Source of the DNA: Chlorobiaceae bacterium
GTDB lineage: Bacteria; Bacteroidota; Chlorobiia; Chlorobiales; Chlorobiaceae
Reading direction: 5' to 3'
DNA length: 64,000 bases
Assembly (NCBI GenBank): GCA_013334525.1
Contig: JAAXXK010000009.1
Coordinates: 6,624-70,623, forward strand
Shown here: piece by piece, positions 250 through 14,133 of the stretch
Layout: each line of letters opens with the position of its first letter
Numbering within the stretch: position 1 is the first letter of the stretch
The notes under the pieces: generated by a model
The model's database searches: none
What the model saw: only the letters and a program-made list of their open reading frames with translations
Told to the model about the DNA's origin: nothing
Translations under genes and position numbers: made by a program

Positions 250-531
250 TATTGCTCCTGAATTTTACCGGGTTACCATTGAAGATATACGAACTGCCGA
301 TAGGTGTCGATAAAGCCTGATTCGACAATCCCGTAAACATAAAGTTACTGAATTCTTTCTATCGGGGCGACAGGTTGATTCCCCATCAGCTGTCGCAGAA
401 AATGGAAACGCCGGTTTGTTAGTGATTAATCGGGCTATTTATACGGCAAAAGATCGATGAATGTAAAACGTATCTGGAGTAATAGCTATATTGGGCATTG
501 CCATTCAATACAAGCTGTACCGAAAACCCTT

Positions 532-1410
532 ATGGAACCTGGCCCAGGCCCGAAACCGGATTGGCTTAAGATCAAGTTGGCTACGGGCTCTTCGTTCGCC
601 TCGACAAGGCAACTGCTTACCCGTCATAGCCTGCATACTGTTTGCCGCTCGGCAATGTGCCCTAACCTGCATGAGTGCTGGTCGAAAGGCACGGCCACCT
701 TCCTGCTGCTTGGTAATGTTTGCACCCGCTCATGCCGGTTCTGCGCCGTTGCTACCGAATCCCGTCCTGAACTACCCGATACCAGGGAACCAGCCCGGAT
801 CGCTGAAGCTGTCAAAACAATGAAATTGCGACACGCCGTTCTGACGAGCGTCAATCGCGACGACCTCCCGGATGGAGGGGCCGGTCACTGGGCTGAAACG
901 ATAAGGGCGATACGTGCCGTAAATCCTTCGGTCAGCATCGAATGCCTGATTCCCGATTTCAATGGAAACGATCAGTCCCTCGACCAGGTCATGGCCGAAG
1001 CTCCCGAGGTGCTGAACCATAACATCGAAACCGTTCCTTCGCTCTATCACAAGGTCCGTCCCCAGGCTGACTACTCCGTATCCCTTTCTATAATTGAACG
1101 GGCACGTCAGAAGTTCAGGCTGGCCACCAAATCGGGCATGATGGTCGGAATGGGTGAAACTTCACCGGAGGTGGAAGCCTCGCTCCTCGACCTGCGCCGC
1201 CACGGTTGCGATATGGTAACCATCGGCCAGTACCTTCAGCCGACGGCGGCTCACCTGCCGGTCACTCGTTACGTTACACCCGACGAGTTCGAATATTATC
1301 GATGCTTCGCACAGCAGGCAGGCTTCAGGCATGTCCAGTCAGCCCCGTTCGTGCGCAGTTCATATCATGCCGAGGCCTTCAGCCCGGCAGAACCGGAAGC
1401 TCTTTCATAA
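532..1410 (+). CDS. lipA: lipoyl synthase
   Basis: Radical-SAM CxxxCxxC ([10 protein letters not shown]) plus the lipoyl-synthase N-terminal Cys cluster ([13 protein letters not shown]). The longest ORF starts at 457. The Met at 532 ([16 protein letters not shown]) gives about 292 aa, a typical length. Confidence 0.9.
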
Positions 1411-1430
1411 ACCCTAACCCCGACTTAACC

Positions 1431-2009
1431 ATGTCACCTTCTGTAACCTTGATGGTTTTTGCCTACTGGGCTGTTGCGGTCATCATTGGCCTGGTCTTTT
1501 TCCGTAAGGACATTCTAACGTTTGACACCAAATTCGACACCAGGCGAATCATCCTGCTGGTGTTCTCGGTTGTGATCCTTGCCGTCAACGCTTATGTCTA
1601 CTCCCATTCGACCTCAGATGGCGGCAGGTCGGTGGATGCACTGAGCGTCCTGGTATTCAGCATAGGCAACGGCGTTGCGGAAACCTTTTATTTCTATGCA
1701 TTTTTCAGGCTGGGTGAAAGCCTTGTCGGCAGATTCACCGCCAACCAGTGGGCACGGTTCATCGTCGGCTTTGTTTTCTTCATGATCTACAGCGGAATCA
1801 TCCACAGGTTCTTCTGGCTTGATATCCTTCCTACCCACGTTGTCCAGACAAGCCCGTTCAAACCATTTTTCATGCCTGTGCAGCTCATGATCGCAAGCAG
1901 CTGGGCGCTTGCTTTTTTCTGGTACCGCGACCTTCGCACCGTCATCATCCTGCATTCGCTAGTCGATTTAACCATGATCTTGAGTGTCAAGTTCTCATTG
2001 TTCAATTGA
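1431..2009 (+). CDS. polytopic membrane protein, function unknown (weak CPBP/CAAX-protease-like E...H...HxxxD pattern)
   Basis: The track ORF 1206..2009 overlaps lipA out of frame. The hydrophobic protein begins at MSPSVTLMVFAYW (1431) and has about 6 predicted TM segments. Motifs GVAE, GIIH and HSLVD are only suggestive. Confidence 0.6.
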   Translation: MSPSVTLMVFAYWAVAVIIGLVFFRKDILTFDTKFDTRRIILLVFSVVILAVNAYVYSHSTSDGGRSVDALSVLVFSIGNGVAETFYFYAFFRLGESLVGRFTANQWARFIVGFVFFMIYSGIIHRFFWLDILPTHVVQTSPFKPFFMPVQLMIASSWALAFFWYRDLRTVIILHSLVDLTMILSVKFSLFN

Positions 2010-2908: not shown

Positions 2909-4813
2909 TTATTTGGCACTTTCCAGATGGGTTAAAAACGGAGCAGCCTCCATAAATCCTATGACCCTGTTTGCCGATAATTCACTTCCGGATTTATCGA
3001 AAAATATGATGGCTGGAGGACCGAACAGGCCGAAGCGCTTCATAAGGGCCTTGTCAGCATCGGTGTTATTGGTAACATCGACCTGCAGGATCGTTAAACC
3101 GGACATCCCGGCCTGCACCTTTGCATCGCTGAAGGTGAACTTCTCCATCTCCTTGCAGGAGGTGCACCAGTCGGCATAGAAGTCGAGCATAACCGGTTTG
3201 CCGGAAGCTTTGAGCTCCCTGTCAAGATCATCGATGGTTTGTATCCTTTTGAAAACAGGCTTTTTGCTTTCCCCGGCAGGGGCTGCTGACGAGCCGTGAA
3301 GTCCGGAGAGCGGCTCAAGTGCACTGGTGCTTCCGGATGCAGCCCCTACTAGTTCCAGGACACCGATCACGAACAGCATCAGCCCCAAAGCCTTGGTGAA
3401 CTTGCCCGAAATGCTCATTTTTTCTGACGGCGGGTTGAGTAGTCCGGCAAATACCGAGCACAGAATCGCCCAACCTCCCCATGCGACCATCAGCGCCTGC
3501 GGCGGCAATACCGGGTTTACCATCCAGATGGCAACGGCTATAAGGAGCAGGCCGAACACATATTTGACTCCTATCATCCAGGCTCCGGCCTTCGGCAGCA
3601 GGCTTCCGGCAGAGAGGCCGATCAGAAGAAGCGGTACGCTCATGCCCATGGCCATGGAAAACAGCGCCAGTCCGCCGATCACCACATCTTTCGTCTGGCT
3701 GATATAGACCAGCGTACCTGCCAGCGGTGCGGCAACGCATGGGCCGACGATCAACGCTGAAATGGCGCCCATAAAGAATACACCGGCGAACCGTCCGCCC
3801 TTCAGGTTTCCGGTAGTCTTGTTCAGGCGGGTCTGCAAGGACGCGGGAATCTGCAACTGATAAACATCAAACATCGAAAGCGAAAGCAGTACGAGCAACA
3901 TTGCGAACATTACCAGTACCCAGGGTTTCTGAAGCGCCCCGGCAAGGCCTTCACCGGCAAGGCCCGCAGCCACGCCGAGAGTCGTGTAGACCAGCGCCAT
4001 GCCTAGGCAGTATGCTACTGCCATCAGGAAGCTTTTTGTACGGGTCACCTCTCCTTCACCGACGATGATCGACGACAGGATTGGAACCATCGGCAACACG
4101 CATGGGGTAAAAGAGAGCAGGAGTCCGAAGACCAGAAACGCCAGGGATATTTTCCAAAGGCTTCCGCCTTCGAGGGTGGAACGTGCCAGCGACATATCAT
4201 CTCCCCCTTTTTTCTCCTTTGGAGGGGTCTGTATTTCAGCCGCCTTTACCGATTCTGGTGATGGCGACGGTGCCGCTGAAACTGAAACAGGTGATTGAAC
4301 CGCTGGCGATGCGACATCAGAAGCGGCTTTTGCGCCAGTTCCAATGCTGCCCGGGTCGATAGCGAATACGCGTTTCATGGGTGGATAGCACAGGCCGTCC
4401 TCGGCACATCCCTGGTATTCGACATTCAGCTTGAATGGCCCTGAGGCTTTCTCAATCGGAACATTGAGCGCAAGGCGATCGTGATAGATCAAAACCTTCT
4501 CGTTGGTCGACGGGTCGACTATCGTGATGCCGGCCGGCATTACCGGAGCTTTCAGTTTCGCATTTCCACTTTCGACGCCCACCTTGATCTGGTCGCGGTA
4601 AAGTTTGTAGCCTTTGGCGATCTGCCAGTTTACCGCTATTGAATTGTTGCCGGTCAGTTTCGCACTGACCTTGAACGCTTGTTCGGGATCGAGAAATTCC
4701 CCTGCGAAGCTGGACACGGAACTCATGCAAAGCACAAGAAACATACCGATAACGGCAAGAACGGCTCTTTTGGATGTTTTAATCATGAATCTTGATTTAT
4801 CTATAGGGTTCAT
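2909..4813 (-). CDS. dsbD: thiol:disulfide interchange protein DsbD (three-domain)
   Basis: N-terminal periplasmic domain with GCAEDGLCYPP. Central CcdA-like TM core with TPCVLPM and GPCVAAP. C-terminal thioredoxin DFYADWCTSCKEM. The ATG overlaps the apbE stop (ATGA). Confidence 0.9.
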   Translation of the reverse strand: MNPIDKSRFMIKTSKRAVLAVIGMFLVLCMSSVSSFAGEFLDPEQAFKVSAKLTGNNSIAVNWQIAKGYKLYRDQIKVGVESGNAKLKAPVMPAGITIVDPSTNEKVLIYHDRLALNVPIEKASGPFKLNVEYQGCAEDGLCYPPMKRVFAIDPGSIGTGAKAASDVASPAVQSPVSVSAAPSPSPESVKAAEIQTPPKEKKGGDDMSLARSTLEGGSLWKISLAFLVFGLLLSFTPCVLPMVPILSSIIVGEGEVTRTKSFLMAVAYCLGMALVYTTLGVAAGLAGEGLAGALQKPWVLVMFAMLLVLLSLSMFDVYQLQIPASLQTRLNKTTGNLKGGRFAGVFFMGAISALIVGPCVAAPLAGTLVYISQTKDVVIGGLALFSMAMGMSVPLLLIGLSAGSLLPKAGAWMIGVKYVFGLLLIAVAIWMVNPVLPPQALMVAWGGWAILCSVFAGLLNPPSEKMSISGKFTKALGLMLFVIGVLELVGAASGSTSALEPLSGLHGSSAAPAGESKKPVFKRIQTIDDLDRELKASGKPVMLDFYADWCTSCKEMEKFTFSDAKVQAGMSGLTILQVDVTNNTDADKALMKRFGLFGPPAIIFFDKSGSELSANRVIGFMEAAPFLTHLESAK

Positions 4814-5691
4814 TCGTTGTGATACATTTTTCCTGACTGGTCGATTGCAAAGTACATCATGCCTGACTGCCTGAGATAGCTCAGCCCGTCAGACTCTTTG
4901 AGCATGGCTATTGTCGTGCAACTGCCGGCAGTTGTCGCCAGCGGCGCAAGAACGGTAATTGAGCGCCAGAAGCTTACCGGAAAACCTGAAACGGGGTTGA
5001 GGATATGGCAGTATCGCCGGCCACCCGTCTCAAAAAACCTCTCATAGTCACCGCTGGTAGCCAATCCCCCGCTGTAGATCGGTATTGAAGCGATCATTTT
5101 TTCGCTGTTGCGCGGGTCCTGAATTCCAATGATCCACGGTTCTCCGCCCGGCTTTGGTCCGATCACCCTGATATCGCCGGCAAGGTTCACGTAACCGCTG
5201 GTCACACCATTTTCAAGAAGTATTGTCGCAGCCGCATCAGCGGCATACTCCTTGCCGATTCCTCCGAAATCGAGCTGCATACCTTTGAGCTGCAGCCTGA
5301 TGGAGTTGCCTTTACGCTCAACCTGTTTCCAGCCGATCAGCTTCAGGAGAGGAAAGAGCGATTCTGGAGCGGGCACCTTGGCCTTGTCGAAATCCCATGC
5401 TCTCCTGAGAACGCCGGAGGTAATGTCAAAAAGTCCGTCGCTGCCCTGATAAAGCACATCAGCATAGTCCAGCAATGCCGAAGTCTCCTCGTCGCATTCC
5501 ACCCAATCGTCGGCAGCAGCTTCGTTGATTTTCGACACGACACTCCCGGCAAGATAACGGGAATACTTGCGTTCGATCCTTCCGACTTCCTTTATGCCGA
5601 CTGCCGATATCGCCTTCGCCTCTTTTTTTGCTGTAGAGGCAATCACGATCTCGCATCCGCAGCCCATTGCCCTGAATCCGATACGAAACAT
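4810..5691 (-). CDS. apbE: FAD:protein FMN transferase (ApbE family), no signal peptide or lipobox
   Basis: ApbE-like blocks FRAMGCGCEIVI, LDFGGIGKEYAAD, LATSGDYERFF and HILNP. Only about 50 nt separate the first Met from the upstream stop, so no leader peptide is possible. Confidence 0.85.
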   Translation of the reverse strand: MFRIGFRAMGCGCEIVIASTAKKEAKAISAVGIKEVGRIERKYSRYLAGSVVSKINEAAADDWVECDEETSALLDYADVLYQGSDGLFDITSGVLRRAWDFDKAKVPAPESLFPLLKLIGWKQVERKGNSIRLQLKGMQLDFGGIGKEYAADAAATILLENGVTSGYVNLAGDIRVIGPKPGGEPWIIGIQDPRNSEKMIASIPIYSGGLATSGDYERFFETGGRRYCHILNPVSGFPVSFWRSITVLAPLATTAGSCTTIAMLKESDGLSYLRQSGMMYFAIDQSGKMYHNE

Positions 5692-5741: not shown

Positions 5742-6962
5742 TCAGAATTTACGGGAAAATCCAAGCTGAAAGTCCCTGATGTTGAAGTAGGCTATCCCGG
5801 GGTCTCCATGACCATTGATGCACCAGTTGTAGCGCTGCTGGTATTGTTCATACCTGACATCGGCAAGCCAGCTGCGCCCGAGATCCCTGCTCACCTTCAG
5901 GCCGTAACTGAAAGCACCGAATGCCGACAGGCGCTGATCTTCGGAATAATATGAGGCCCCTGCCGGAGGTGGCGTAGGCGTTGCCGGATCATTCAACTCT
6001 GAGGCTCCGACAGGAACATAGAAATCGGCTGCGCTTTGCGAATGAAACCTGACAAGCGGCGTCAGCACCCATCCTTTCGACAACGGCTGGACATATTCGG
6101 CATCGAAAGTGTGCGCCCTTACACCGAAGGTATCAGAGTAATAACGGTAGGACAATCTGCCGGTTCCGTCAGTACCTTCAAAATGGTGGTTCCAGCGAGT
6201 CATGACCGTATAGATGTTACGATGGTCCGGCCTGAGGTCCGGTGCTTTATAGGGATCGGAGTAATAGCCGTGACCATGGGTATAAGTCAGGTTCAACTGG
6301 ACGATGTCGTTTTTGGAGACGACCTGGGTCAAGCCGACCAGCCCGGAATAGACTTTTTTCCTGCCTGTCGCAAGCTGAAATTTGGCAGGATCAACAGCTG
6401 GCTTGTCCAGGGCAATGGTATCTCTGTTATATGCGGTACCGAGACTTAAGGTAGTATTCTTGTCTTCAGTCGACAGCGTGCCGTTTAAAGAGAGACCTCT
6501 GGAGATGTAATCAGACTCCTGGGAGTAAGTTGCACCGGCACTCAGGGTGCCTCTCGAAAAATATCGGGTTACCGAAATATCCCCTGCATGACGAAGCTCT
6601 CCGGAAGCTCCTGAAGCAGCATCGTGTTTCGGAGAGCTGGATGGAAAACCGGAAGAGTGGTATAATGGGGAGGCGCCTGTAATTGAATCTTCAATGAAAG
6701 TTGCAGAGATGGACCACTTGCCGGCAATCGGCACCATGCCCATAAACGAGAGAGCGTTGACATTGATTCTGTCCCGCGTCATTCCAGCCGTTTGGGCAGT
6801 ATCGCCTGACTGGCTGTCGTGATAATTCAGATATTTGATGCCGACGATCGCCCGATCGGGCGCAGCTTCGGCATAGATGCTCTTTGGGGATGGCGAAAGC
6901 ATCGCTGCAGATGCAACAAGAATGCTGAAAACAGTAGATTTTGTTGTCAAACCCAAAGCCAT
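5742..6962 (-). CDS. outer-membrane beta-barrel protein, DUF3570-like
   Basis: Signal peptide, alternating beta-strand pattern and C-terminal ...QLGFSRKF (terminal Phe). The position between a DUF4266-like lipoprotein and ApbE matches a neighbourhood I recall for DUF3570. It contains DSITGAS and DAASGAS motifs. Confidence 0.65.
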   Translation of the reverse strand: MALGLTTKSTVFSILVASAAMLSPSPKSIYAEAAPDRAIVGIKYLNYHDSQSGDTAQTAGMTRDRINVNALSFMGMVPIAGKWSISATFIEDSITGASPLYHSSGFPSSSPKHDAASGASGELRHAGDISVTRYFSRGTLSAGATYSQESDYISRGLSLNGTLSTEDKNTTLSLGTAYNRDTIALDKPAVDPAKFQLATGRKKVYSGLVGLTQVVSKNDIVQLNLTYTHGHGYYSDPYKAPDLRPDHRNIYTVMTRWNHHFEGTDGTGRLSYRYYSDTFGVRAHTFDAEYVQPLSKGWVLTPLVRFHSQSAADFYVPVGASELNDPATPTPPPAGASYYSEDQRLSAFGAFSYGLKVSRDLGRSWLADVRYEQYQQRYNWCINGHGDPGIAYFNIRDFQLGFSRKF

Positions 6963-7000: not shown

Positions 7001-7231
7001 TCAATTACATCCGCAACCGCCACCGCCAACCCCGGCTCCTCCTGAAGCAGCCTCCTTGCTACCGTAGATATGCTCGGAATATCCGCTATCAAGCCTGTCG
7101 CCTTCGAAAGTCATCTCAGGTTTGGCCAGGTTCTGCTTTTCCCAGGGCTTGACGCTGGAACATCCAGAGAGGGTTGAGATCATCAACAGAAACAGGGCCG
7201 ATACCCAGGATAGAAAAATCATTATTTTCAT
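7001..7231 (-). CDS. small lipoprotein, DUF4266-like, with Gly-rich GGGGCGCN C-terminus
   Basis: Lipobox LSGC after a hydrophobic leader. 76 aa with a C-terminal GGAGVGGGGCGCN tail. The start overlaps the stop of the upstream tlpA-like gene. Confidence 0.65.
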   Translation of the reverse strand: MKIMIFLSWVSALFLLMISTLSGCSSVKPWEKQNLAKPEMTFEGDRLDSGYSEHIYGSKEAASGGAGVGGGGCGCN

Positions 7232-7717
7232 CGCTTATCCTCCAAAGCTGCCTTGATACTGTTTTCAAGTTCCTCCCTGTCGGACTCCCTGAATCCTTGG
7301 TGCTGTAATAGAATCCGGCCATTCCTGTCGATCAGGAAACTTGTCGGCATACCTTTTTCACTGTAACCACGAGCATTTTCTCCCTTCGAATCGAATGCAA
7401 CCGTAAAATGAGCAGGGGTTTGCGCCAGAAACTTTTTGGCATCATCTGTTTTTGCATCAAGGTTGATGCCGATAACCTTAAATCCTTTTGATCTGTATTT
7501 TTCCTGCATCTGGTTTATCCAGCCGAAAGACTGAGGGGCCACACCATGAAGCCCAGAAATCCAGATAGATAACCTCGCCGGCATTAGCTGAGAGGTTGAC
7601 TACTCCATGGACACCGGGTAAAGAGAAATCAGGTGCCTTATCACCTTTCCCGAGGGCATAACTGTTGGAGCACAACCCAAGCGATACAATAATAGCAATA
7701 TAATACGCCCTGGGCAT
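7228..7717 (-). pseudogene. TlpA/ResA-family periplasmic thiol:disulfide oxidoreductase, frame disrupted inside the CxxC motif
   Basis: Frame A (7478..7717) encodes a signal peptide and ...YLDFWASWCGPS, then nonsense. Frame B (7228..7584) continues ...QSFGWINQMQEKYRSKGFKVIGINLD... to a normal thioredoxin-fold C-terminus. The junction is near 7530-7535 (tggtgtggcccc-t-cagtctttc). Confidence 0.7.
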
Positions 7718-8100: not shown

Positions 8101-8141
8101 AAAAAAAAACCATGAACCAGCGATTATGCCGGTTCATGGTT
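8101..8141 (-). terminator. rho-independent terminator after the blue-copper gene
   Basis: On the minus strand: aaccatgaacc-ggcataatcgct-ggttcatggtt followed by T9. Confidence 0.8.
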
Positions 8142-8167
8142 TATAGACAATCAGCTTTTAATGCCGC

Positions 8168-8761
8168 TTACTTTGCCATTTTGAGGGCTACAGTTGCTGT
8201 GCCACCATCGGCTACGGTAACTGTGGTTTTGCCTTGTGGTTTCAGCTTCTCGCTCCATGCCGTGATTTCGTAGGTACCGGCAGGAACGTTGGGGATAGAG
8301 AATTTTCCGTCTGCGCCGGTTACAGCATAAGCATTGCTGTCAACAACAACGACATAACCGGACATTTCAGAATGGACATTACAGAGAAGGTTTACAACGC
8401 ATGACTTGTCAAACACAACTGATTTTGTCATGCCGGGATTGTATGTGCCAAGGTTAAACTTCTTGCAGACATCGGCAGAAAAGATGTTGTGGTTAACCTT
8501 GTCGCTGTTCTTGAAATCCACACTGGAACCAGTCGGAACAGCAAGTACATGAGGTATAAATACAAGATTTTTCTGGTCTACTTCAGCTTTTTTCGGCGTA
8601 ATCGGGCCCTTGACACCCTTGAGGTAGACTACCACATCTTTTTTGTATTTCGGAATAGCAACATCGACCGTACCGGTTACCGTGCCGGCACAAAAAGCAT
8701 TCGTTGAAACTAATCCTAAGCCAGCTGCAATAATGGCAGTTTTCAATACTTTACTTTTCAT
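8168..8761 (-). CDS. type-1 (blue) copper cupredoxin fused to a CarboxypepD_reg-like Ig domain, periplasmic
   Basis: Signal peptide. Candidate T1Cu ligands are His91 (DKVNHNIF) and Cys127-x2-His130-x2-Met133 (LLCNVHSEMSGYVVVV), an amicyanin-like spacing. C-terminal GADGKFSIPNVPAGTYEITAW. AAGGAG SD present. Confidence 0.7.
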   Translation of the reverse strand: MKSKVLKTAIIAAGLGLVSTNAFCAGTVTGTVDVAIPKYKKDVVVYLKGVKGPITPKKAEVDQKNLVFIPHVLAVPTGSSVDFKNSDKVNHNIFSADVCKKFNLGTYNPGMTKSVVFDKSCVVNLLCNVHSEMSGYVVVVDSNAYAVTGADGKFSIPNVPAGTYEITAWSEKLKPQGKTTVTVADGGTATVALKMAK

Positions 8762-8989
8762 TCTTCACTCCTTGCTGTTGATGTTAGAATAACGGTAAAG
8801 GAATACTCCTGTACACGCTTTTTGATAAATAAAAGATAAGCAAATACGGACATCCGGTCACAATTCAACTATAGCTTCGTACTTCATGGAATCATAGTGT
8901 GGGAATCGGAAACAACCTCCTCCCCCTTTTACCTATGACGTCATTATGTAACAAAACTATCGTTTCATTGAGTTCCTTGGTTTACAACA

Positions 8990-9442
8990 TCATTTTGAAA
9001 AAGTTTTGATATAGGCAACAAGACATTCAATCTCGTCACTTTCAAATGTCTTTCCCCAGGGAGGACACATGTTCGATTTCCCGACTGAAGCAGAGCCCCC
9101 GGTGATAGAGCGGGTCAAAGCTTCATCTGTCATCGTTTTCATGAAAGCCTTATCCGTAAAATTTGCAGGTGTAGGCTGCAATGAAGATCCATAGTACTGA
9201 CCTGTTCCGTCACCACTCTCTCCATGGCATACACCACAGTAGCGGGAAAAGAGTCGTTTGCCTTCCTTTATATCGAAAGGAAGATTGACATTTGCGTCAG
9301 CTATTGCTTTCAATGAATCTGCGCCTGCGCTTGTTGCGTCGGCTTTACCTTTTACCGGCTGCTTACCGCACCCCGCGAGCATAAGCGCGGGGATTACGGC
9401 GAGCAGGGCGTATTTGCTGAATGTTACTTTTGTTTTCATCAC
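8990..9442 (-). CDS. monohaem class I c-type cytochrome, lipoprotein
   Basis: Lipobox LMLAGCGK and a single CGVCHGESG haem motif. The start overlaps the stop of the octahaem gene by 4 nt. Confidence 0.8.
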   Translation of the reverse strand: MMKTKVTFSKYALLAVIPALMLAGCGKQPVKGKADATSAGADSLKAIADANVNLPFDIKEGKRLFSRYCGVCHGESGDGTGQYYGSSLQPTPANFTDKAFMKTMTDEALTRSITGGSASVGKSNMCPPWGKTFESDEIECLVAYIKTFSK

Positions 9443-12057
9443 TTGGCACTGATTTTCAGGGTCATCAAAAAGTTTGTCAACAGTACTCTCTCACGTTCAG
9501 TGAAGCCATAATTCGGTTCGACGATATCCGGCTTGTACTTTCTCGGATTCTCCAGATGCTTGAAGATAAATCCGGGCAAAAGGCGATTGCCGACATTGGA
9601 AAGGTTAGGACCTACAGCACCACCATCCGTACCGAGCTGGTGACAGCTCCTGCATCCCTTGTCATCATAAATCTTCTTGCCTTGAGCAATCTGTTCAGGC
9701 ATTGCTACGTCGGCAATTACAGGAATCTTCGTCGGGATATCGCTCGTAACCAGTTCCTGCTGGAAGTAGTTGACAACAACATCAACATCAGACCTGTTGG
9801 TATCTTCGACCTTCTGCGTGCCGAGGTTGAACTTAGGCATGGTGACCTTCGCAGGCGTCTTGCCCATGCTCAATCCAAGCTTCGGCATCTGCTGAAGCAA
9901 TGGACGAATCATGTCAGGATTTGCAAGGAAGTTACGAATCCAGCTCTCCTGCAGCTTGCTTCCTGCCAGCGAAAGATCAGGAGCGTAATCAGCACCGATG
10001 CCCTTGATTGTATGGCAGTTGGTGCACTTCACATCAGCAATAACCTTTGCGAAATCACCTGTGAATTTATAGCCCTGGACACCGGCCATTTTGTCGAGTT
10101 CCTGACGAGACGGCACCATGAACCTTACCGGCGCATTGCTGTCGGTAAAGCCGTAAAGCACTGCAGACAGTTCATTGACTTCCGTTTCAGAGAGTCGGAA
10201 ATTAGGCATACGCAGGCCAAGACGAAATCCTCTTGGATCGCGAAGCTTCTGTTTTATGTAGCTCAGGCGATCGTTTGGCATCGATTTCTTCAGTTTACCA
10301 AAATCGAGCAGTTCGACGGGCTTGCTGCCGATAGACGAAAGCTCGGTACCGATCTTCTCACGCATTTCATCGCTTCTCAGGAAGGTAACCCCCTGGGCTT
10401 TCAGCGATGGAGCAACCTGTACCATCTCCATTCCGCGCATTTTATGGCATCCATAGCAACCATACTGCTGGACAAGATCCTTGCCCTTTTTGATTGATGC
10501 TGCCTGTATCTGCACCGGGGCGACATACTTGTTTTCAGATTCATCGTCTACATATTCGCTGGAGATATAGTCGACAAGGGCATTGATCTCCTGATCGGTA
10601 AATCTGAAACGAGGCATTTTCGTACCCGGGAAATACTTGTTCGGGTCCTTGATCCAGTTGAACAGCCAGGTCTTGTTGACTTTGCTGCCAACTTTGCTCA
10701 GGTCAGGCGCATATACCTTGGAATGGTCACCTCCTCGGCCTCCTGTTGCATGGCAAAGGTTGCATCGTGCCTGACTCCAGAGGGCTTTGCCCTGTTCGAC
10801 AAGTTTAGGATCGTTTTTGATATTGGCAGAATCAACGTCACGCCTGTCTGATCCTGACATGCTGAAAAGATAGTCGGCGATAGCTTCGGCCTGGTCCTGC
10901 GTAAAGAAGAACTTGGGCATACGTGCTGTCGAGAAGTATTTCTTAGGATCGAGCAACCAGTTCACAGCCCAGGTATAATTGACCTTTGTTCCTACCTGTG
11001 TCAGTTCAGGGCCTACATCACCAATGCCTTCATAACCGGGAATCTTGTGACAGCTGTAGCAGCCGTATTTTTTTACAAGCTCGGTATTTTTGGAAATTGT
11101 TTCAGCACCGCGAAGATTCTTGATGTCACCATGGCAGTTCAGGCATGAGGTCTGTGTCATGTCACCTTTGAGCATGGCTTCATCCCAGTACTTTACTTTA
11201 CCATGAGCTTTCTCGACGGTCGTTGTAGCACGGCCCTGACCACGATGGCAGTATGTACAACCGAACTTTCCAGGGTCGTGATGTCCGAGGTAGACTGAGG
11301 TCAGCGGATGCTTCGAATAAGGCTGCTTGGCCGAGGGCTGTTTTGACGACTCGATACCTATATGGCATGAGACGCAACGGTCAGCCTTGTCAACGTCCTT
11401 GATAAGGAACTGCTTGATCTCGATAGGAGCCTTCTCGTTATTGGCAATTTTCTCCTTTTTTTCTTCGAGGATTTTGTTAAGCTGTTCGATTTCTGCCTTG
11501 ATTGCAGGAATATTGCCCGCAATCTGGGCAATAGATTCCCTGATCGGCTCCTGTTTGACCTGAATATCCTTGCTCTTTTTGTCAATGGCATCAATCTGGA
11601 GCTGAAGTGCATCCATCTCCTTCTTGTACTCGGGCTTCTGGGTCCTGGTGAAGTAATACTCTGTTTCGAGATACTTGCCACGGACAGTCTGAAGCTGCTT
11701 CTGGCTTTCAGCGGCCTGCTTCTGAAGCTCTTCAAGCTGACGGTTCAACTGCTCGTACTTCTCACCAGCTCCCTTGCCTTTAAGTCCAGCTTCTGCTTTC
11801 TCAAGCTGAGCATTAAGGTCGGCGAGGCGTTTTGCGCCACCGCTTCTTTGAAATTCAAACTGCGCCTGCTTGTATTCCTTTACAAGCTGGTCGTGTTTCA
11901 GCGATTTGTACTCTTTCTGGTAGTGTTTCCATGGTCTCAGACCGAATTCGTCGTCCCAGATAACCCAGGCAGATAAAATCAACAAGACAACACTGAAAAA
12001 AGCAAAGAAATACGCTCTGTACGCTGAGCTGTTTTTATTCTCATTCGCCATAGTCAA
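9439..12057 (-). CDS. membrane-anchored octahaem c-type cytochrome with long coiled-coil stalk
   Basis: Eight CxxCH motifs: CVSCH, CTYCH, CLNCH, CYSCH, CNLCH, CYGCH, CTNCH, CRSCH. One N-terminal TM helix, then about 170 aa of heptad-like K/E/Q-rich sequence. The last five haems sit in tandem class-I-like repeats (C..CH...L..VG.K......W.....P). Confidence 0.85.
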   Translation of the reverse strand: MTMANENKNSSAYRAYFFAFFSVVLLILSAWVIWDDEFGLRPWKHYQKEYKSLKHDQLVKEYKQAQFEFQRSGGAKRLADLNAQLEKAEAGLKGKGAGEKYEQLNRQLEELQKQAAESQKQLQTVRGKYLETEYYFTRTQKPEYKKEMDALQLQIDAIDKKSKDIQVKQEPIRESIAQIAGNIPAIKAEIEQLNKILEEKKEKIANNEKAPIEIKQFLIKDVDKADRCVSCHIGIESSKQPSAKQPYSKHPLTSVYLGHHDPGKFGCTYCHRGQGRATTTVEKAHGKVKYWDEAMLKGDMTQTSCLNCHGDIKNLRGAETISKNTELVKKYGCYSCHKIPGYEGIGDVGPELTQVGTKVNYTWAVNWLLDPKKYFSTARMPKFFFTQDQAEAIADYLFSMSGSDRRDVDSANIKNDPKLVEQGKALWSQARCNLCHATGGRGGDHSKVYAPDLSKVGSKVNKTWLFNWIKDPNKYFPGTKMPRFRFTDQEINALVDYISSEYVDDESENKYVAPVQIQAASIKKGKDLVQQYGCYGCHKMRGMEMVQVAPSLKAQGVTFLRSDEMREKIGTELSSIGSKPVELLDFGKLKKSMPNDRLSYIKQKLRDPRGFRLGLRMPNFRLSETEVNELSAVLYGFTDSNAPVRFMVPSRQELDKMAGVQGYKFTGDFAKVIADVKCTNCHTIKGIGADYAPDLSLAGSKLQESWIRNFLANPDMIRPLLQQMPKLGLSMGKTPAKVTMPKFNLGTQKVEDTNRSDVDVVVNYFQQELVTSDIPTKIPVIADVAMPEQIAQGKKIYDDKGCRSCHQLGTDGGAVGPNLSNVGNRLLPGFIFKHLENPRKYKPDIVEPNYGFTERERVLLTNFLMTLKISAK

Positions 12058-12103
12058 CTGAATTTTTGATGGGCAATTACAGTACCTGAAATGAATCCGA
12101 GCA

Positions 12104-12988
12104 TCACACGTTGAACCAGGGAGTTATCCAGACATATTTGATAAGGAAAACCAACCTGAGTATCATCTTTATCGGTATAGACATCATGGTGATGAAGAGA
12201 AAGACAATAGTGACATAACGAATCATGCCCAACTGCTGAAGTAATTCAGGATTCTTCTTCTGCCAGTATTTGTATGGCCAGACCATTCCGCCGACCATAT
12301 AAACCCCCACAACTATCGCTCCAATGATGAAACCTGCAAGAGAGCGAGATTCAACACCTACAAGATTTGAAAGATCTCTCGTAGGCTCAAAAACCACCCG
12401 ATGGGCATCCCACTCCTGCCATGGCCAGTACCACAACCATCCCGGTCCCCTGTCGAAAACGCCGATGACAATCAACAAGAGCCAAAGGATGAAAAAGCCG
12501 AACGAGAAGATAATGATCGAATATTTCCTCTCGGAAAAGGTGTAGTAACCGTTTCCTTTCGGATTTGTGTCGATATAGGGAATCGCGATCAGACCAACAA
12601 CGATCAGTGACGGCAGCACAACGCCTGCAAGCCACGGATCAAAGTACACCAGCAATTCCTGAAGGCCAAGGAAATACCATGGCGCTTTTGCCGGGTTAGG
12701 CGTCAACGTCGGATTTGCAATCTCCTCAAGCGGAGCATCGACAACGATGGACCAGATGGTCAGGAAAAGCATGACAGCAAGAGAAATGAGAAGCTCTATA
12801 CGAACAAGAGGCTTGTAAGTATCTACATCCTGGTCATTTTCACCATCGACGGCGTAACCGGATGCTTTGAGCTTGTCGTTCTGAAAAGCCTGCTGAAAAG
12901 CCCATACCATGAAAAAGCTCACCATCAAGATCATGATCACGATGGCGATATTATCCGGCTGGGTAATGATTTCGATAAATGGGTTCAT
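12104..12988 (-). CDS. cytochrome b C-terminal / subunit-IV-like protein, extended (about 6 TM)
   Basis: Qo-loop-like motif KAPWYFLGLQELLVYF, cf. PEWYF of subunit IV / cytochrome b. The Met at 12988 (MNPFIEII) follows the cyt b stop by 14 nt. The track ORF extends spuriously to 13099. Confidence 0.75.
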   Translation of the reverse strand: MNPFIEIITQPDNIAIVIMILMVSFFMVWAFQQAFQNDKLKASGYAVDGENDQDVDTYKPLVRIELLISLAVMLFLTIWSIVVDAPLEEIANPTLTPNPAKAPWYFLGLQELLVYFDPWLAGVVLPSLIVVGLIAIPYIDTNPKGNGYYTFSERKYSIIIFSFGFFILWLLLIVIGVFDRGPGWLWYWPWQEWDAHRVVFEPTRDLSNLVGVESRSLAGFIIGAIVVGVYMVGGMVWPYKYWQKKNPELLQQLGMIRYVTIVFLFITMMSIPIKMILRLVFLIKYVWITPWFNV

Positions 12989-13002
12989 AAGTTCTTGCCC
13001 TG

Positions 13003-13770
13003 TCAGTGATTTTGAGGTCTTGAAATTCCACCGTCTTTTCTGACTCGCCAGAAATGGACAACCATTAAAACGGTTGCGATGAGCGGTATGGCGATGCAAT
13101 GCCAGATATATGATCTAAGCAGAGCGTTACCACCCACCGTTGCACCACCCAGCAGTGCGAAGCGAATATCATTGTAAGGCGTGATATGCAGATATTCACT
13201 GAACGGCCCCTGATAACCTAGAAGCGGAGTCGCAGCACCCATGTTGGTACCCACGGTGATAGCCCAGAATCCGAGCTGATCCCACGGCAGCAGGTAACCG
13301 GTAAAACTCAGCAGGAACGTCAGTACCAGCAAAATAACACCAATCCCCCAGTTAAACTGACGTGGAGCCTTGTAGGAGCCGGTCATGAAAACCCTGAACA
13401 TGTGGATCATCACGACGATAACCATAAAGTGGGCCCCCCACCGGTGCAGGTTCCTGGTTATGACGCCATAAGGAACCTGGAACTCCAGATCCTTCATGTC
13501 CGAGTATGCCTGGTCTACCGATGGGTGATAATAGAACATCAGCACCACGCCGGTAATGGTCAGGATTATGAACGCCAAAAACGTTATTCCGCCCATACCC
13601 CAGGTATATCTGAGCTTTACGGCGCTTTCGCGAACCTTCACGGGATGGAGGTGAAGAAAAACGTTGCCGAAAACGGCAAGGGCCCGATCCCTGACGTTAT
13701 CCCTGTAATCTCTTCTGAATACGGATTTCCATATCAGATTTTTTTTCACCTTGTTAAATAGATCGCTCAT
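13003..13770 (-). CDS. cytochrome b6-like (N-terminal four-helix) cytochrome b
   Basis: Bis-His haem ligand spacing in helix B ([17 protein letters not shown]-x13-H) and helix D ([18 protein letters not shown]-x14-H). LPWDQLGFW block present. Confidence 0.85.
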
Positions 13771-13800
13771 ACGGTGTACAATTTTGTTTTCTGAACAAAT

Positions 13801-14133
13801 TTATCTGTAGCCACGCAGCCGTTGCAATTGCTTTGCATATTCGGCGGGATCTTTTTTCGTGCCGTCAGCATTGACCATAATGATTGCGAACCAAGGGCAA
13901 TCAATGGCGCAGATATTACACCCGGTGCAGCGTTCATTGACGGTCGCGACCCCTTTGAAGTTCAGCTCAGAAGGCACGATCGTCACACAATTGACCGGAC
14001 AGACGTTGGCACAGATAGCGCAGCCAGTACAGAGGTCGATGTTGACCAATGCCAGCGCTCTTTTCCTCGCACCGGGCTGATTCTGCGATGCAGAAACGTC
14101 CTGGTCCTGAATGATCTCTTCGTTGGTATCCAT
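13801..14133 (-). CDS. 2[4Fe-4S] dicluster ferredoxin, no signal peptide
   Basis: Two CxxCxxCxxxCP motifs: CTGCAICANVCP and CTGCNICAIDCP. Located between the Rieske and cytochrome b genes. Confidence 0.85.
   Translation of the reverse strand: MDTNEEIIQDQDVSASQNQPGARKRALALVNIDLCTGCAICANVCPVNCVTIVPSELNFKGVATVNERCTGCNICAIDCPWFAIIMVNADGTKKDPAEYAKQLQRLRGYR

Follow-up and report, generated by a model that had tools for sequence, protein, structure and literature searches.

The window, that is, the whole 64-kb stretch of DNA that was analysed, carries five tightly packed genes on one strand, which encode a thioredoxin-like (Trx-like) protein, a DUF4266 lipoprotein, a DUF3570 protein, an ApbE and a DsbD. 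These genes, together with the features located within the DUF3570 gene, are as follows.

2909..4813, minus strand: DsbD, 634 aa, with DsbD_N, DsbD_TM and thioredoxin domains (Pfam)
4810..5691, minus strand: ApbE (FAD:protein FMN transferase), 293 aa (Pfam ApbE, E 1.4e-70)
5742..6962, minus strand: DUF3570 gene, 406 aa (Pfam PF12094), with a Sec-type signal peptide and a 16-strand outer-membrane beta-barrel predicted, and a C-terminal Phe
6603..6623, minus strand: flavinylation motif 2, D114-A-A-S-G-A-S120, with Ser120 (codon 6603..6605) as the predicted FMN acceptor
6669..6689, minus strand: flavinylation motif 1, D92-S-I-T-G-A-S98, with Ser98 (codon 6669..6671) as the predicted FMN acceptor and a conserved Pro99 next to it
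6870..6962, minus strand: signal-peptide-like N-terminus (judged by eye), residues 1–31, MALGLTTKSTVFSILVASAAMLSPSPKSIYA, followed by E
7001..7231, minus strand: DUF4266 lipoprotein, 76 aa (Pfam PF14086, E 4e-23, profile positions 1–50 of 50)
7228..7717, minus strand: TlpA/redoxin-like thioredoxin gene, disrupted, with Redoxin matches in two ORF halves that lie in different frames

The start of the DsbD gene overlaps the stop of the ApbE gene by 4 nt, and the gap between the ApbE and DUF3570 genes is 50 nt. The Pfam scan of the 406-aa ORF with PF12094 gave an E-value of 7.1e-64 and 216.6 bits against a cutoff of 25, with residues 16–378 covering profile positions 6–399 of 427, in agreement with the earlier note, which had placed a DUF3570-like gene just upstream of apbE. 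DUF3570 was the sole Pfam match of this protein at E <= 0.01, and the FMN_bind domain (PF04205) was absent from it. The DsbD protein belongs to the DsbD subfamily of NCBIfam, scoring 584 bits where the cutoff is 330; that collection contains no model of either DUF3570 or DUF4266. The DUF4266 protein has the lipobox LSGC and ends in GGGGCGCN. The gene that precedes the cluster is closed by a strong terminator-like hairpin (8107..8142), and a promoter scan gave matches no more numerous than those in shuffled sequence. Farther upstream, an apparently separate cluster at 8168..14133 encodes a cupredoxin-like protein, a monohaem cytochrome c, an 872-aa multihaem cytochrome c, a split cytochrome b and a ferredoxin.

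The same five genes, in the same order and orientation, were found by tblastn (80 loci) both in Chlorobi and in Betaproteobacteria, the latter represented by Duganella, Massilia, Pseudoduganella, Rugamonas and Methylovorus. ApbE and DUF3570 are linked in about 50 of the 80 loci, and many of the others end at contig edges. All 63 DUF4266 homologues from related loci end in GGGGCGC[NY], and 56 of the 63 carry a lipobox, the misses looking like wrong choices of the start codon. This gene set is the DsbD-type flavinylation system of Méheust et al. (2021, Fig. 4D; eLife 10:e66878, PMC8238504), all five genes of which are present here in the conserved order. [quoted passage not shown]

Both exact D-x-x-[ST]-G-A-[ST] motifs are present in the minus-strand reading of the DUF3570 gene at precisely the nucleotides and residues at which they had been reported, separated by a spacing of 22 residues. 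When all six frames of the 64-kb window were cut into stop-to-stop segments and those of 100 aa or longer were kept (36,505 aa altogether), the pattern D..[ST]GA[ST] had only these two matches, both inside the DUF3570 ORF; from composition, 0.007 matches per protein would be expected. When the DUF3570 protein was shuffled 200,000 times, at least one motif occurred with P = 0.0072 and at least two with P = 1.5e-5, which bears out the view of the earlier note that the pair is unlikely to be coincidental. Since the matches are confined to this ORF and the shuffle probability is so low, we regard the two motifs as real and not as an effect of composition, and a chance occurrence was rejected on these two grounds.

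The idea that both motifs are unmodified chance matches in a loop rich in Ser, Gly and Ala draws on the simple composition of that loop (SSGFPSSSPKHDAASGASG) and on the low model confidence at residues 110–117. It is nevertheless extremely improbable, given not only the figures above but also the near-invariance of motif 1 across the family, the presence of a second motif in 87 of 96 copies and the experimental flavinylation of a family member (PMC8238504).

The conservation of the motifs was assessed in several sets of homologues. A word-indexed search retrieved 1,822 DUF3570 homologues, the best 120 of which were all Chlorobi-type; the nearest relative among these 120 was a protein of a Chlorobaculum MAG with 87% identity, and the closest proteins found from named isolates were those of Chlorobaculum tepidum (67%) and Chlorobium ferrooxidans (58%). 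A HMMER search run exhaustively over 1.84 billion cluster representatives yielded 1,633 proteins at E <= 0.001. In an alignment of 120 near-full-length diverse representatives (50% clustering), the residues of motif 1 and the Pro that follows it were conserved as listed here.

Position 92: D/E in 118 of 120 representatives
Position 95: S/T in 114 of 120
Position 96: G in 117 of 120
Position 97: A in 117 of 120
Position 98: S/T in 118 of 120
Position 99: P in 117 of 120

A second [ST]GA[ST] is present in 67 of these representatives, mostly 11–22 residues downstream of motif 1, whereas 42 have a single site. The survey of genome loci, which covered 96 DUF3570 copies in the 80 loci (C. luteolum not among them), found motif 1 in every copy and a second [ST]GA[ST] in 87, leaving nine with one site alone. 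The second site is located downstream of motif 1 in 55 copies (loop L2 of the structural model described below, at +11 to +26) and upstream of it in 32 (loop L1, at −40 to −62), all of the latter from Chlorobi; one of these 32 has a further upstream match at −86. Thus, the alignment of homologues that had been suggested as a check shows motif 1 to be near-invariant and a second site to be frequent. Several Chlorobium MAG loci contain two to four tandem DUF3570 copies, with both types of second site.

These counts bear on whether both serines matter. Because about a third of the family members have a single motif, the second flavin is not universally required, and Ser98 alone might bear the functionally essential flavin, with motif 2 being accessory and evolutionarily labile, maybe modified but dispensable. 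The single-site proteins (42 of 120 representatives, nine of 96 locus copies), the variation of the second site in spacing (+11 to +26) and in loop (L1 or L2) and the frequent absence among homologues of the D at position −6 of motif 2 all fit such a role. On the other side, both sites of the C. luteolum protein are modified, since both had to be mutated to abolish its fluorescence (PMC8238504), and the second site is kept in 68 of the 72 Chlorobi copies (~94%), reappearing in the adjacent loop when it is lost from L2. This retention and reappearance argue for selection for two flavins, and we consider the restriction of function to Ser98 a real possibility, albeit clearly the lesser one.

Two flavinylation sites in DUF3570 are not in themselves new. 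Starting from the neighbourhoods of orphan apbE genes, Méheust et al. (2021) recognised DUF3570 as a substrate of ApbE and described two conserved [S/T]GA[S/T] motifs in 228 ApbE-associated DUF3570 proteins; co-expression of C. luteolum DUF3570 with its cognate ApbE in Escherichia coli produced a UV-fluorescent band, which disappeared only when both Ser-to-Ala changes were made (PMC8238504). The earlier note was therefore wrong in regarding the flavinylated DUF3570 class as uncharacterised, as this flavinylation is mentioned in the very abstract of the 2021 paper (PMC8238504). The DUF3570 locus of the window is one more ordinary example of a system already known, the phenomenon having been published in 2021, and a reading of the sequence alone had rediscovered the published result that DUF3570 serves as a substrate of ApbE and is flavinylated at two sites. 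No other papers naming DUF3570 were found in the searchable literature to deal with its flavinylation. The word 'barrel' is never used in the 2021 paper, which mentions the outer membrane solely for TonB receptors (PMC8238504), and a follow-up study of 2024 includes the outer membrane in its list of places where flavinylated domains are located, DUF3570 not being named (PMC11334425). What is added here is modest: the barrel topology of the sites, the relocation of the second site from one loop to its neighbour and an ApbE that lacks a leader.

The N-terminus of the DUF3570 protein, as judged by eye, has one Lys, a 14-residue hydrophobic core and a cleavage-type site, I-Y-A. Residues A19, P24, A31 and P35 are invariant among the Chlorobi homologues. 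An AlphaFold2 model built on an alignment of 93 sequences had a mean pLDDT of 89.2 and a pTM of 0.86, with pLDDT below 50 at residues 1–29, and contained 16 beta-strands. The turns that follow even-numbered strands comprise 2–5 residues, whereas the connections after odd-numbered strands are mostly long, up to 38 residues. The loops of the model that are referred to below or are otherwise prominent are these.

Loop L1: residues 53–62
Loop L2: residues 97–121
Loop L4: residues 184–200
Loop L5: residues 233–246
Loop L7: residues 310–347
Loop L8: residues 378–391

In the canonical topology of outer-membrane barrels, periplasmic turns are short and external loops are long, and the strict short/long alternation of the connections in the model is this very pattern. 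When compared with the PDB by Foldseek, the model matched outer-membrane barrels only (FadL, OmpG, OccK/OpdK, CymA, PelB, BcsC and a PgaA-type secretin), with a probability of 1.0 and TM scores of 0.4–0.5, which point to a generic barrel fold and not to a close relative; a sequence-profile search found no PDB relatives of the protein. The C-terminus reads ...GFSRKF, and a terminal Phe is found in 17 of 21 aligned homologues, the other four ending in Ile, Leu or Met. Because of the putative Sec-type signal peptide, the confidently predicted 16-strand barrel and the C-terminal Phe, the DUF3570 protein is most likely an outer-membrane protein.

Motif 1 closes strand 3 (residues 83–96) of the model, so that Ser98 is located two residues past the strand, and motif 2 directly precedes strand 4 (residues 122–135). 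The motifs thus lie on either side of the loop that joins strands 3 and 4 (of 16 predicted), consistent with the description of both as lying before most of the barrel strands. With the orientation of the loops taken from the AlphaFold2 model and the canonical topology rule, Ser98 would stand at one end of loop L2 and Ser120 at the other, on the side of the predicted barrel that bears the long loops. Mapping of conservation on the model showed that 18 residues with at least 85% identity are found in loops L2, L3, L5 and L7 and none in the short turns, while the conserved strand residues are mostly near the loop-side ends of the strands. In outer-membrane proteins, variability is normally greatest in the external loops. 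A conserved loop side is therefore unusual and argues for a functional site there or in the lumen, and going by the model, the two flavins may form a redox site either at the mouth of the barrel on the loop side or within its lumen.

A Chlorobium paralogue of the upstream-site type (P0089), from a clade of such paralogues, was modelled with the same pLDDT of 89.2 and has the same fold and the same pattern of loops and turns. Its extra SGAS is in loop L1 (residues 52–68 of its model), and its motif 1 is near the tip of an extended hairpin formed by strands 3 and 4. A second site outside L2 would accordingly be placed by these models in a neighbouring loop on the same face of the barrel, which fits selection for a pair of flavins close to each other.

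All told, it is very probable that the ORF at 5742..6962 encodes a DUF3570-family orthologue to which ApbE adds FMN at Ser98 and Ser120 and which is likely an outer-membrane barrel, in a conserved five-gene cluster. The adjoining ApbE would most likely attach FMN by a phosphoester bond to each of these residues, which we assign because of the motifs and their conservation; in the C. luteolum member of the family, the modification is experimental. Hence the central proposal of the earlier note, a covalently flavinylated outer-membrane protein, is supported by the conservation of the motifs, the linkage to apbE, the barrel model and the published C. luteolum result (PMC8238504). As for function, Méheust et al. 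proposed a hybrid system of thiol/flavin electron transfer fed by DsbD (PMC8238504). Judging by gene content, and in line with the literature, electrons would probably pass from cytoplasmic thioredoxin to DsbD, from DsbD to periplasmic thiol carriers, then to the flavins of DUF3570 and finally to an acceptor. The putative thiol carriers are the Trx-like protein and the CXC of DUF4266, of which the Trx-like component appears to be broken in this genome.

An alignment of the DNA with that of four Chlorobaculum relatives revealed a 5-nt deletion in the Trx-like gene, between nt 7534 and 7533, directly after WCGP, whereby the second Cys of WCGPC is lost and the frame is shifted. An independent Logan contig (biofilm metagenome run X1, word depth ~589) has the identical deletion sequence with no gaps. 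Because of this identity the deletion is probably real, the evidence on it being that of contigs, which can hide minority alleles, and an assembly artefact is unlikely as the source of the frameshift. The thiol relay may be impaired in this organism through the frameshifted gene. One could go further and suppose that the whole system is decaying here, with the relay non-functional even if DUF3570 is still flavinylated, as would befit the loss of the second catalytic Cys and of the reading frame and the recurrence of the deletion in an independent assembly at ~589-fold depth. We think this rather improbable: none of DUF4266, DUF3570, ApbE and DsbD is truncated, and each retains its conserved residues; DsbD carries a thioredoxin domain of its own, and other periplasmic thioredoxins could substitute; and several related loci have no Trx-like match beside DUF3570 in the fetched flanks.

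Among known systems, the closest to the one in the window is that of C. luteolum DSM 273 (DUF3570, ABB24424.1; ApbE, ABB24423.1), which belongs to the same Pfam family PF12094 and comes from the same family Chlorobiaceae. The two share a pair of [S/T]GA[S/T] motifs with Ser acceptors, an adjacent apbE and the cluster with DsbD, Trx-like and DUF4266 genes, but flavinylation has been measured in C. luteolum, whereas the protein studied here is known from sequence and model, and the Trx-like gene of the window is frameshifted. The classical ApbE substrates, namely the FMN_bind proteins NqrC, RnfG and PplA and the subunits NqrB and RnfD, have in common with DUF3570 the Dxx[ST]GA[ST] motif and the transferase family, and use phosphoester-linked FMN for extracytosolic electron transfer (PMC8238504, PMC12052999). 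However, they are small alpha/beta domains or helical inner-membrane subunits at the cytoplasmic membrane or in the periplasm, whereas DUF3570 is predicted to be a 16-strand barrel located in the outer membrane. DUF2271, another ApbE substrate without FMN_bind, was likewise recognised from orphan apbE neighbourhoods and is flavinylated at [S/T]GA[S/T] (PMC8238504), but it is small and soluble and has a single site (PMC11334425), unlike the large barrel of DUF3570, which usually has two.

No homology to MtrCAB was detected in the DUF3570 system, and the resemblance between the two is a functional analogy only. Porin-cytochrome complexes of the MtrCAB type likewise unite a barrel in the outer membrane, redox cofactors and a partner that is periplasmic or a lipoprotein. 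In MtrCAB, the cofactors are haems carried by separate proteins, which thread through a barrel of 26 strands, whereas in the DUF3570 system the flavins would be on the barrel itself and the upstream carriers would be thiols and disulfides. By this analogy, the DUF3570 system might serve to transfer electrons to the outer membrane or across it, and in green sulfur bacteria it could be relevant to redox reactions on the outer membrane or outside it, such as those of iron or extracellular sulfur. The questions that arise concern the DUF3570 family as a whole: the role of the barrel flavins, the possible reduction of flavins at the cell surface by a thiol relay that DsbD feeds and the way in which an ApbE devoid of a signal meets a putatively Sec-exported substrate.

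With regard to the last of these, neither a signal peptide nor a lipobox was found on the cluster ApbE, and the same was true of all 50 related loci with an examinable N-terminus. The ApbE ORF begins 8 residues ahead of the first conserved strand (FRAMGCGCE), and there are in-frame stops 9 codons upstream of its ATG. The best PDB relative is Thermotoga TM1553, in which chain residue 25 corresponds to query residue 8, and the alignment to the E. coli ApbE model runs from position 40 on, which is past the lipoprotein signal. The start is at the same place in the 50 related loci, many of which have a stop 0–10 codons upstream. According to a 2025 review, the characterised ApbEs that act on exported substrates are periplasmic lipoproteins, and the leaderless ApbE of Klebsiella pneumoniae serves a cytoplasmic soluble fumarate reductase (PMC12052999). 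The cluster ApbE is leaderless like the latter, but its only evident substrate has a putative signal peptide and a predicted barrel fold, so that, going by the sequences, enzyme and substrate appear to be mismatched in location.

In the C. luteolum assay, the two proteins were co-expressed in the cytoplasm and the product was obtained from the insoluble pellet (PMC8238504); an ApbE can therefore modify a non-native DUF3570 chain. Flavinylation before export is possible because the cluster ApbE is leaderless in every locus examined. We can tentatively imagine a DUF3570 precursor that is flavinylated in the cytoplasm, exported by Sec with its two FMN and folded by BAM, with the flavins on the loop (cell-surface or lumen) side of the barrel and within reach, from the periplasm, of the Gly-rich tail of DUF4266, GGGGCGCN, which would make a thiol-driven flavin electron conduit to the cell surface. 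This scheme is rather unlikely, and no description of pre-export flavinylation or of a flavin-bearing outer-membrane conduit was found in the papers searched.

Alternatively, DUF3570 might be flavinylated in the periplasm by another, secreted ApbE encoded elsewhere, with the cluster ApbE having a different, cytoplasmic substrate. Such a division of labour would conform to the known cases, in which ApbEs acting on exported substrates are periplasmic lipoproteins and cytosolic ones serve cytosolic substrates (PMC12052999), and the window comprises 64 kb of the genome. We nonetheless hold it to be doubtful, as the ApbE of the C. luteolum cluster flavinylated DUF3570 in the cytoplasm of E. coli (PMC8238504) and about 50 loci, belonging to two phyla, have a leaderless ApbE next to DUF3570.

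The DUF3570-linked ApbE lacks both signal peptide and lipobox, in the window as well as in the 50 related loci examined for such a leader, which were drawn from Chlorobi and Betaproteobacteria (set L001-L080, related genome loci with DUF3570), whereas DUF3570, its predicted substrate, carries a predicted signal peptide and has a predicted barrel fold. The genes concerned here and in the next paragraph are as follows.

4810..5691, (-) strand: DUF3570-linked ApbE, leaderless
7001..7231, (-) strand: DUF4266 lipoprotein with a Gly-rich C-terminal tail, SGGxGVGGGGCGCN
7228..7717, (-) strand: TlpA/redoxin-like thioredoxin gene of the cluster, split into two frames

The tail of the DUF4266 lipoprotein is nearly invariant over two phyla, and all 63 of the 63 homologues from loci L001-L080 end in GGGGCGC[NY]. 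A flexible tail of this kind, with a CXC at its end, might extend into the barrel of DUF3570. The TlpA/redoxin-like gene is split by a 5-nt deletion between nt 7534 and 7533 of the window, whereby the active-site motif WCGPC loses its second Cys. A contig obtained independently from metagenome run X1 (depth ~589) carries the same deletion, and the gene is intact in the four Chlorobaculum relatives compared (4/4).

Many Chlorobium MAGs encode two to four copies of DUF3570 per locus (multi-copy loci L012, L020, L030, L032, L033, L035, L036, L039, L041, L043 and L053), some of them accompanied by Trx-like and DUF4266 genes of their own. In one type of paralogue the second SGAS motif lies in loop L1 of the barrel model, 40-62 residues upstream of motif 1 (DSITGAS in the window protein), and not in loop L2.

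A strong terminator-like hairpin (8107..8142) lies between the DUF3570 cluster and a neighbouring gene cluster that looks like an unusual bc-type complex.

8168..14133, (-) strand: neighbouring cluster encoding a cupredoxin-like/CarboxypepD_reg protein and a monohaem cytochrome c; an 872-aa protein in which several cytochrome c domains are recognised, weak MtrC-like and c7-like matches among them; a cytochrome b split into petB-like and petD-like parts; and a 2x[4Fe-4S] ferredoxin

Elsewhere in the window there is an ORF with no Pfam match.

1206..2009, (+) strand: 267-aa ORF with several hydrophobic segments

It overlaps, in another frame, the 3' end of a radical-SAM (lipoyl synthase-like) gene (457..1410), and its true start is therefore probably further downstream.
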